From Escherichia coli (GTDB lineage: Bacteria > Pseudomonadota > Gammaproteobacteria > Enterobacterales > Enterobacteriaceae), in assembly GCF_048403405.1 (NCBI RefSeq), contig NZ_CP183129.1: 64,000 bases of DNA. The stretch is one strand, 5' to 3'. Shown here one piece after another: positions 3,001 through 6,000 of this stretch; within the stretch, counting starts at the first letter, position 1, and each line of letters begins with the position of its first letter. Made by a program: the position numbers.

Positions 3001-6000
3001 AGGTAAGGAATAATCTGTAGCCGGGTTTCTTCACTCAATTTATTCAATGTCGGGTTATCCAGTGCCATCGCGTAATTGAGCAGACCTTCAATCGCAAACT
3101 GAGGATCCTGAACACCAACTTTTGCCAGGAATAAGGCAAACCCAAGCGGTGCTTTCGATTGCACCATCCCCTGCGCAGCCATCACATCCGTAATCGTTAA
3201 ACCACCAGAGCCTGTCGCCGGTGCGTCATCACTCAATTTTGGAGATTTTGGGGAGTAATATTTTGGTAAGGCTTCAAGGTTCATGCTCGTTCTCCACTTA
3301 CGCCAGTACGCCTATTGCCAGCGCACGATCGATAAAACGAAATATCAGCTCCAGCTGGGAGCCATACTTCTCTTCAAATGCCACGGTATCCGCATGCAGC
3401 TCGTCGTGATGCTTTCTGCACAAAGGCAACACAAAAAGGTCATGCGCTTTTGTACCCATTCCCCCCTGACCGTGGCCTATCAGGTGGTGGGGATCATCAG
3501 CAGGTTTTCCACAACATGCGCACGGCTGCGTCTTAACCCAGCGCGTGTACTTTTCATTAACCCAGCGGTGACGTTTTGGGCGTAACATAAAAGACTCCGG
3601 CGACTCCGGATCCACTTTCAGCGCCAGCACCTTTTTCGCCTTATCCTGGATGATGCTGGTGGCAGGAACCGAAGGCACAAGGTCACTTTCCCGGGTAACA
3701 GACGGCACAACAGGCTTCGGTAATCTCAGTGCCTTACGGGCTGCACTTTCCGGTAAGGCATCCGCCAGATCATTACGAATCAGCCACCAGCACAGTTCCG
3801 GCATTGTCACAACATGACTGTCATCAAAACCGAGATCCCGACGCACAACAGACAACACCCAGCGGGCACAGTTATCCGTTGCCATTGATTCCAGCCGTTC
3901 CGTGAACTGATCGCGCAGCTGGTTATCGCAGTGCCAGCACAGACGGATTGCGCCCGGAGCGTGTCGCATTGTTGTCATATTCTCGCTGTGCCAGTCGGAA
4001 TGAGGCCACTGGCAGCCTTTTTCACGAAGTAACCAGCTTTCAAGACATTCCACGCCACCAGCACGACGGATCACTGCCTCATTGCGGAACACGGCCCGAA
4101 CGGCAGGATCATCCGCCAGCGGTTGTGATGCCGCCGGAACGGCACCACTGGCGAAAGATGAATAACGTTCCGGCTCAGGCTCCAGCAGGACACGCCCCTG
4201 CATAAACAAGGGCATCAGCTCTGAACCTGGTCTGAACAATACGATCCCCATACGCGGGGCAATTTCAGGGGTCAGTAGTGCTCTCACGGTCACCTCAATG
4301 AACGGTATCGAGCAGCTTTAACAGCTCAGGGAATCGGGATTCGAAGAAATGCGGCTGCGTCTCGCGCGGATTTGCAGGACTGGTGATGTTCTTGCCGAAC
4401 ATGCAGCCTTTCGCGGTCAGCGACCAGAATTTTTTGATGTTGTTAATCGCGGTACGACTGTATCGTTCGCGTTGTTCAACGATCCCCAGCTTCGCCATCT
4501 GGTGATATGCCTGATTAGCCGTCAGGCGGATACCATACTGCTTCAGCAGTGCACTCAGCGACAGCGTAGGGCGGCTTGAACCATCTGGCGCATCAGCAGG
4601 TGCATCAATGGCATAGATCGGCATAAGTTCAGGAAGACCAGCTACCTTTGATAATTTCTGGTATGCACCAAGTTTCGAGGAGTTTGACAGATTTAGAGTC
4701 TTTGCTGCTGATTCAAGCAGAATGACCCCGGATTTAATTTTGTCGGATGTGGTTTCTTCTGGTGATGAATTATGAAGCGCATCAAAAGTACGTATCACTT
4801 TTAAGCTGAATGCCGGGCTGATCCACATTGCATATGCATAGACCAGCTCTTTACAGACATACGTCCCACCATTGCGCCCCTGAATGGTGATGACAGGAAT
4901 ACTACGGGAATCTCCCGTAGTTTCTTCTTCCAATAATTCCACAAGAGCCTTCGTTTCAGGACGACGCATAAACTCGTGAACTTCCAGCGAACGGGAGGAG
5001 CGATTCTCACCAGCGGCAAGAAGAGCAGCTTTCTGAAGGTCGTTAAGACAGTAGTTAGATTCGAAGTACTGGCGCACAGAAACGCCATCAATTACAAGCA
5101 ACTGATTCATTGGTTTCTCCACAAATTTTTATCCACGAGCGGGACTGCACTCCCTTTTCGTTGATGCAGGATGAACTTACTGCGATTTTTAATAGTTATC
5201 AAGGATACACTGTTCATAAATACAGTATCTTTAACGAGGTAATACCCAAATTTAGGGTGTTGCTCAATTCCGTTACCGAGTTGCTAATTTGCAACTCGCT
5301 TTTTCGTACTTACTGATAGTGATCTCGACCTTCCCCTCCGGGATAACCGGTCCCCACTCCACCAGCATTCTTTTCACCTGACTGTCGTCTTCCCACACAC
5401 CCGCGTGGGTCAGGGCGTCAAACAGCGCCTTGTTATAGTTGTCCAGATCGCGGATCCGGTTATCCGGAGGAAACAACACGATCTCCACTGAAGCAGGTGC
5501 CGACGTTGGTTTTGGCAGACGACGTAACTGCTCAACTATTGCTGCACACGCCGCGCTCTGGAATTTTCGCCCCGCCGCGCTTATCAGGCTCTTACCAGCA
5601 AACGCCCCTTTGTTGGGGTGTCGCCAGTACGTGTTCACGCTGGTCGGAAAAGGCAGGATCAGCTTCATACTTTCAGGCCCCTCTCATGTAACCAGTGGGC
5701 TGCACGCAGCCTGGCGTTTTCCTCACCGGCAAGCAGTGAGCGGATAATCCCGACCGCCTCGCTGTCGTCGTCCTTCACCACGGTATGAAGCGTGATCCCC
5801 CGGGCCACACCACGCTTTATCGTGATGACGCCTTTTTTCTCCAGTGCGCGAAGATGCTCCACCGCTGCATTCACTGAACGGTATCCCAGCATGGTTGCCA
5901 CCTCCTGATTGGTTGGCGGGAAGCCACGTTCTTTCTGATAAGAAATCAGCATATCCAGCACCTGCTGCTGGCATTGAGTTAAAGTCGTCATGCCGCCATC

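Follow-up and report, generated by a model that had tools for sequence, protein, structure and literature searches.

What does a terminator-shaped hairpin do on the plus strand of a region in which every neighbouring gene is read from the minus strand? The question is raised by positions 5111-5306 of a stretch of Escherichia coli DNA of 64,000 nucleotides (nt) from contig NZ_CP183129.1 (hereafter the window), which cover the space between the prophage genes KilA-N and rusA and the 3′ end of rusA. A first-pass annotation had placed a plus-strand terminator at this locus, within 5160-5265, together with a promoter for a possible short antisense RNA. Its observation that all flanking genes (rusA, KilA-N, DUF968 and Q) lie on the minus strand holds. 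As we read the sequence, 5111-5306 is probably the control region of a DNA-damage-responsive minus-strand operon consisting of KilA-N, DUF968 and Q, and an SOS box, a minus-strand promoter and the KilA-N 5′ leader explain most of the range 5160-5265 better. No description of this locus, of its SOS box or of an RNA encoded there was found in the literature.

The probable KilA-N control region

The elements of the control region and the genes it is predicted to serve are as follows.

5208-5227, no strand assigned: LexA box CACTGTTCATAAATACAGTA (CTGT-N8-ACAG), 22.1 bits
5174-5202, minus strand: sigma-70 promoter, TTGATA (5202-5197), 17 base pairs (bp), TAAGTT (5179-5174), 11.4 bits; predicted start at about 5167
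5135-5161, minus strand: hairpin in the 5′ leader of the KilA-N mRNA, outer stem ACGA/UCGU, inner stem GGGA/UCCC, loop GUGCAG
4295-5110, minus strand: KilA-N domain gene, 271 amino acids; start ATG at 5110 with GGAG at 5120-5117, as annotated in phages SfIV and PhiR49_1
3298-4293, minus strand: DUF968/HNH gene, directly behind KilA-N
2532-3284, minus strand: antiterminator Q gene, directly behind DUF968

The LexA box was scored with a weight matrix derived from 19 E. coli boxes known from the literature, and it falls within the range of these known boxes (own scores 13.5-27.1 bits). The runner-up in the window reaches 10.9 bits and the highest score in 20 shuffled windows is 17.1 bits. In SfIV and in one E. 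coli variant the first base of the box is T, which is nearer the consensus. Five base pairs separate the box from the -35 element of the TTGATA-17-TAAGTT promoter downstream, which puts it at about -41 to -60. Similar boxes recur beyond the window. KilA-N homologues were drawn from IMG/VR and from a set with one genome for each species; of their 114 distinct upstream regions, 24 contain a LexA-like box scoring 12 bits or more, versus 7 of 1904 control windows. By our own grouping, these 24 regions represent about nine sequence types; those from Erwinia, Edwardsiella and Serratia have a box that overlaps the core promoter. The recurrence of such boxes upstream of KilA-N homologues therefore points to SOS control of the KilA-N gene as a recurrent theme.

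The minus-strand promoter ranks about 21st of 640,000 configurations in a position-weight scan of the whole window, built from hexamer frequencies. The scan has some credibility because it also recovers the promoter of isrK, exactly at the 5′ end of the corresponding Rfam match, and a pR′-like promoter past Q. Distant relatives conserve a promoter TTGAAx-N17-TAATGT, with a variable spacer sequence and 13 nt to the leader hairpin; the window promoter matches it in position, its own leader hairpin starting 13 nt past the -10 element. The succession of rusA, promoter, leader hairpin, ribosome-binding site and KilA-N is shared by many lineages.

The stem of the leader hairpin covaries: across 12 diverse relatives, seven of its eight pairs show compensatory changes and none is broken. 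The conserved loop, GUGCAG in the window, reads AUGCAG, AUGCGG, UGUACGG or UAUACGG in relatives from Erwinia, Providencia, Proteus and Morganella. No Rfam family matches 5135-5161, and the hairpin may represent a new cis-regulatory RNA motif. A covariance model of it finds a single copy in the window; the model is too narrow, as it missed the Serratia, Rahnella and Proteus versions. Terminator functions considered for this structure were rejected. At SfII-type rusA ends, the weaker hairpin GGCGG-CTGCAC-CCGCC followed by GTTTTCTCG, taken as a possible terminator analogue, is actually the KilA-N leader hairpin (GGCGG-GTGCAG-CCGCC) read from the opposite strand. A role as antisense-strand terminator fails as a general account, since the leader hairpin is followed by a T-run in the Proteus and Morganella types but not in the Erwinia and L160/L162 types, and its loop is conserved.

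These elements suggest a DNA-damage switch. Host LexA would occupy 5208-5227, directly upstream of the -35 element of the 5202-5174 promoter, where we infer that it represses by occluding upstream contacts and the edge of the -35 element. Cleavage of LexA would then allow minus-strand transcription from about 5167, and the transcript would pass the conserved 5′ hairpin (5135-5161) before entering KilA-N (ATG at 5110) and the genes behind it. KilA-N and DUF968 lie 1 nt apart and DUF968 and Q 13 nt, and the search for a strong minus-strand terminator between the three genes found none. Because they are packed in this way, the promoter should feed Q as well, through co-transcription.

The hairpin at the 3′ end of rusA

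5277-5298, plus strand: hairpin CGAGTTGC-TAATTT-GCAACTCG, stem 5277-5284/5291-5298, loop 5285-5290
5299-5306, plus strand: T-run CTTTTTCG (C-TTTTT-CG), directly 3′ of the hairpin stem
5273-5668, minus strand: rusA, Holliday junction resolvase; its lineage-specific tail spans the hairpin

The hairpin falls outside the range 5160-5265, its true site being about 45 nt further right. The sequence given for it, GAGTTGC-TAATTT-GCAACTC followed by GCTTTTTCG, is indeed present, at 5278-5297 and 5298-5306 rather than at about 5232-5265. It has an 8-bp stem with five G-C pairs, a 6-nt loop and five U residues within 6 nt of the stem. The predicted folding free energy (ΔG) is -12.9 kcal/mol versus -3.9 ± 1.9 in shuffles (z -4.9, matched by 0 of 200 shuffles), and the tail has a TransTermHP-style score of -3.48. 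The structure thus has both a stable stem-loop containing G-C pairs and, immediately 3′ of it, a U-rich tract, an arrangement in the correct orientation only on the plus strand. In this respect the proposed terminator stands; as the end of a same-strand transcription unit it does not, there being no plus-strand gene upstream and only weak upstream promoter candidates.

The hairpin sits within the last nine codons of rusA, past the Pfam RusA domain, in the tail ...YEKASCKLATR* (KVEITISKYEKASCKLATR*). The T-run is the complement of conserved rusA Glu-Lys codons (GAA AAA G in the window, GAG AAA A in SfII), and the terminator shape is therefore a composite of a lineage-specific palindrome and a pre-existing rusA A-run. 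The palindrome has no further copy in the window, where one match at three mismatches, below chance expectation, was found. In IMG/VR, all copies occur in the rusA context, apart from unrelated jumbo-phage terminators, and a search of plasmids gave nothing relevant.

A shape of this kind may arise by chance: random expectation for 64 kb is one or two terminator-shaped sequences. The loose terminator pattern is frequent, with 11 matches in 5 kb versus 4.7 ± 2.2 in shuffles, and when a hairpin ΔG of -12 or lower is required the window contains seven sites, compared with 0-4 (mean 1.6) in Markov simulations. A similar plus-strand example, ACTACGGGA-ATC-TCCCGTAGT followed by TTCTTCTT (4901-4921, -12.8 kcal/mol), lies antisense within the KilA-N coding sequence. 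The rusA hairpin is better than the typical chance match, even though a window of this size should contain one or two such matches, and, as part of a discrete insert specific to its lineage, it lies within 100 nt of both a strong LexA box and another strong hairpin. A purely fortuitous origin is accordingly very unlikely.

The same letters also fold on the other strand, where the stem, fully Watson-Crick, is comparably stable (-13.5 kcal/mol). A minus-strand RNA element, such as a 3′ stabiliser of a processed rusA message or a processing site, would fit this stability and would fit the rare variant G5278A, in which pairing is retained on the minus strand only. However, the minus strand offers no U-tract, the element is not conserved elsewhere and the neighbouring hairpin favours the plus strand, so that a role of this type appears highly improbable.

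The lineage-specific insert and a possible plus-strand RNA

Relative to relatives of the L166 type, the window carries an extra segment of about 70 nt (approximately 5228-5298), in which a linker joins the terminator hairpin to a second hairpin. The features within it are:

5238-5264, plus strand: second hairpin, GGUAAUACCC-AAAUUUA-GGGUGUUGCU, stable mainly on the plus strand
5252-5290, plus strand: direct repeat of an 18-nt motif, TTAGGGTGTTGCTCAATT and TTACCGAGTTGCTAATTT, 72% identical and 21 bp apart, which links the two hairpins and includes G(T/A)GTTGCT..AATT
5239-5267, minus strand: second, weaker promoter candidate TTGAGC-17-TATTAC, 6.8 bits; with a start at about 5232, the LexA box would fall at about +6 to +25 of its transcript

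In the L166-type relatives, a LexA-like palindrome follows directly after the rusA A-run. In the SfII type, KilA-N begins within 19 nt after rusA, and rusA homology to the window ends at about 5297-5299, with the breakpoint between the palindrome and the T-run; homology picks up at the T-run. The insert is confined to E. coli and Shigella, where 185 of 5426 complete E. coli genomes carry it; it also occurs in five phage records and in about 130 copies in IMG/VR. Its copies are near-invariant, belong to a near-clonal lineage and keep a constant context. It is absent from all sister lineages examined, and the other lineages, bearers of a LexA box included, have no antisense-strand terminator between the box and rusA.

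Carriers of the module include O104:H4, O157:H7, O103, O111, O55:H7, the extraintestinal pathogenic E. coli strain S88 and Shigella phage SfIV; ECOR13(PhiR49_1) is a further lysogen. Over the compared part (the intergenic region and approximately the last 130 nt of rusA), SfIV is 99.7% identical to the window. Its RefSeq record (NC_022749, 4062-4615) shows no rusA coding sequence between gp43 and gp44, which is probably an annotation omission. The module of rusA, SOS region, KilA-N and DUF968 occurs in combination with three or more different Q alleles (E. coli O104:H4 C227-11, STEC2018-607). In C227-11 the region lies at NZ_CP011331.1:1469648-1469848. A link to Shiga toxin was checked: the C227-11 and STEC2018-607 copies lie in lambdoid prophages without stx. 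Both of these prophages encode a NanS-p-like esterase, and that of C227-11 also carries tRNA Ile/Arg/Arg.

The sharp junction raises an alternative in which no plus-strand RNA is made at all. The palindrome would be an operator-like DNA site or the leftover of a module exchange at a mosaic joint, and the look of a terminator would arise only from its chance abutment on the rusA A-run. Consistent with this, the homology breakpoint falls exactly between palindrome and T-run, the L166-type relatives carry a LexA-like palindrome at the same place by the rusA A-run, and the stem is perfectly Watson-Crick and shows no strand preference. In addition, the palindrome lies about 10 bp upstream of TTGAGC-17-TATTAC, much as the LexA box lies 5 bp upstream of TTGATA-17-TAAGTT, and the repeated G(T/A)GTTGCT..AATT motif may have arisen by local duplication or reflect repeated binding sites. 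Against this, the palindrome has no second copy in the window, and the second hairpin is an imperfect palindrome as DNA yet a perfect helix as plus-strand RNA. On balance, an element or relic acting only as DNA is unlikely.

The strand preference of the second hairpin is pronounced: it folds at -13.4 kcal/mol (z -4.7) on the plus strand and at -7.2 (z -1.4) on the minus strand, because three G·U pairs become C·A mismatches there. In the most divergent variant (AZ187), the corresponding values are -4.8 and -0.9. For an 80-nt fold, the z-scores are -5.4 on the plus strand and -2.9 on the minus strand. Together with the LexA box and the lambda OOP precedent, this bias gives a plus-strand RNA some, though low, probability; two promoter candidates can be proposed for it.

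5161-5189, plus strand: best candidate, TTGATG-17-GATTTT, 8.8 bits; start at about 5196, giving an RNA of about 110 nt to 5306
5196-5226, plus strand: alternative candidate, TTATCA-19-TACAGT, 6.2 bits, weak; -10 element within the LexA box, start at about 5233, giving an RNA of about 73 nt

The promoter originally named, TTGATG (5161-5166) with TTTAAT (5188-5193), fails on spacing: its 21-bp spacer is beyond the 16-18 bp range of sigma-70, and its "-35" corresponds to about +2 to +7 of the predicted KilA-N mRNA, inside the leader. A separate consensus promoter scan likewise found no plus-strand promoter at that site. The 8.8-bit replacement is equalled or exceeded by 153 configurations in the window, and its -35 element is changed to TTAATG in AZ187. 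The 3 kb upstream contain no plus-strand promoter that scores higher. An Rfam covariance-model search of 5100-5320 returned no match at E ≤ 1 and none at the gathering threshold. A plus-strand open reading frame at 5110-5316 (68 amino acids, or 51 from the ATG at 5164) was considered and set aside; it is without a ribosome-binding site and runs across the terminator.

The closest precedent for an RNA in this position is OOP of phage lambda. This RNA is read from pO to tO opposite to the pR operon and shares a 52-nt overlap with the 3′ end of cII, and pO contains a LexA site (PMC5869508). In the lambda sequence, we read pO as TTGAGT-17-CATAAT, with a 15.5-bit LexA box over the oop start. By analogy, an SOS-inducible antisense RNA would start at about 5196 or 5233, at or beside the LexA box, and end at 5304-5306 in the rusA 3′ end. 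It would fold into the 5238-5264 and terminator hairpins and pair with early-operon read-through mRNA between rusA and KilA-N, so that cleavage by ribonuclease III would alter the KilA-N and Q message from the early promoter. The layout parallels that of OOP, with a short RNA opposing an operon, a LexA site and a terminator in the 3′ end of the upstream gene. The 80-nt plus-strand fold and the second hairpin, which still pairs on that strand in AZ187, also favour this account, and the lineage-specific insert coincides with the putative RNA body. On the other side, the plus-strand promoters are weak (8.8 and 6.2 bits versus about 12 for lambda pO by the same hexamer logic), with the -35 mutated in one variant and no Rfam match, and the feature is not conserved in any other lineage with a LexA box. 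The U-run has just five residues and is derived from coding sequence. Nor does the putative RNA have extra complementarity to the KilA-N leader: trans pairing in the style of istR/tisB was no better than in shuffles (p 0.1-0.2) and was rejected. We consider an OOP-like RNA doubtful. In its fullest form, the proposal would make the insert (5228-5306) a small RNA (sRNA) gene, encoding a 73-110-nt SOS-inducible OOP-like RNA and sharing its LexA box with the divergent KilA-N-DUF968-Q promoter, with the KilA-N leader hairpin (GUGCAG loop) as a further cis-regulatory element; this appears distinctly unlikely. We do not think that the present sequence evidence makes the case for a dedicated, conserved sRNA gene.

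This leaves the hairpin within the control-region reading. The hairpin and its T-run (5277-5306) would mark the far upstream edge of the control region, in the dispensable tail of rusA. The rusA/KilA-N intergenic region is AT-rich (39% G+C versus 50% for the window), and the hairpin quite possibly stops plus-strand transcripts that leave it, a tentative proposal that falls somewhat short of probable. Such a stop would act before these transcripts run antisense into rusA and the replication genes, and the product would be no more than a short RNA of 75-110 nt.

Several points weigh against this reading. If the plus strand is not transcribed, the hairpin has nothing to terminate. Conversely, the plus-strand bias of the second hairpin and the parallel with lambda OOP suggest more than a passive stop. 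With about 130 near-identical copies, selection on the hairpin is not measurable, and two rare variants of the stem reduce its plus-strand stability to -8.7 and -7.6 kcal/mol. Finally, the LexA box, at about -41 to -60, does not show the classical overlap with -35, -10 or +1.

The prophage module and its known counterparts

The module belongs to a prophage of the SfII/SfIV/SfV/PhiR49_1 type, whose repressor belongs to the cleavable UmuD/S24 class. A further gene of potential relevance lies two genes upstream of the SOS box:

5665-5991, minus strand: phage gene with a LexA DNA-binding domain only, 108 amino acids

This protein is 43% identical to residues 1-86 of E. coli LexA, with the recognition helix SVNAAVEHL versus SPNAAEEHL. 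It could be a second ligand of the SOS box, in which case it would be a non-cleavable one.

Other RNA-related features were noted in the window. Downstream of Q, a pR′-like promoter, TTGCAT-17-TAAAAT (2500-2472, minus strand), precedes a bidirectional terminator, AAAACCCGC-TCAT-CAGCGGGTTTT (2403-2426); a promoter followed by a terminator just past Q is the usual short-RNA arrangement at late promoters. The open reading frame called ymfL in related phages contains minus-strand Rfam matches to C4 antisense RNA (8464-8551, 82.8 bits) and to isrK (8576-8652, 55.4 bits), and a promoter-like TTGATT-17-TACACT (8687-8659) places a start at the isrK 5′ end. Past the late promoter, an Rfam match to the cspA thermoregulator (1319-1758, minus strand, 156.7 bits) points to the leader of a cold-shock gene carried by the prophage. 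At 20064-20385 on the plus strand stand three tRNA-Leu(CAG) genes in tandem, apparently part of the host chromosome and not of the prophage.

Should the SOS box function as predicted, a promoter feeding Q in a prophage module would be under the direct control of host LexA, and DNA damage would have a route to late-gene expression that bypasses the prophage repressor. If the sRNA account were also true, a single LexA box would switch on both the Q route and an antisense RNA that cuts the early-operon read-through message. The hairpin matters only if plus-strand RNA is made; it would then be a second example of the lambda OOP design, elsewhere in a lambdoid genome. As it stands, it is an ordinary terminator-like structure of uncertain use, and the locus falls into known classes, namely SOS-regulated prophage genes and possibly OOP-type RNAs.

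Like a canonical Rho-independent terminator, the hairpin has an 8-bp G+C-containing stem, a 6-nt loop and five U residues within 6 nt of the stem; unlike one, it ends no plus-strand gene, lies in an opposite-strand coding sequence and has a U-tract that complements Glu-Lys codons. In the tisB/istR-1 and dinQ/agrB systems, a toxin gene under LexA control is preceded by an oppositely oriented gene for a short RNA, and the sRNA pairs in trans with the toxin leader. The window shares with them a LexA-box gene and a candidate divergent short RNA upstream, but differs in that no leader complementarity was found and the downstream gene is not a small toxin.

The resemblance to lambda OOP extends to an intergenic promoter candidate directed against the early operon, a LexA site, two hairpins and a terminator hairpin in the 3′ end of the upstream gene. 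The LexA site at 5208-5227 would lie at +13 to +32 of one plus-strand candidate and over the -10 element of the other, and a transcript ending at 5306 would overlap rusA by 34 nt (5273-5306). Conservation in related phages with structure-preserving changes was not found, the insert belonging to a single near-clonal lineage and being absent from its sisters. The two loci also differ in sequence, with no similarity between them, in site (rusA/KilA-N, not cII/O), in the much weaker promoter candidates here and in the restriction to one lineage.

The SOS box itself also has counterparts. A host SOS box ahead of a prophage gene outside the immunity region can lead to its direct switch-on by DNA damage (PMC7067206). 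The KilA-N locus resembles the LexA-repressed Gifsy antirepressor genes (GfoA, GfhA and GftA) in having a host SOS box before a gene outside the immunity region. Coliphage 186 tum and SPC32H ant are further LexA-repressed prophage regulatory genes. Unlike the Gifsy antirepressors, the KilA-N protein has no detected antirepressor domain, the prophage repressor is of the cleavable UmuD/S24 type, and the SOS-controlled promoter would feed Q in addition to the gene directly behind it.

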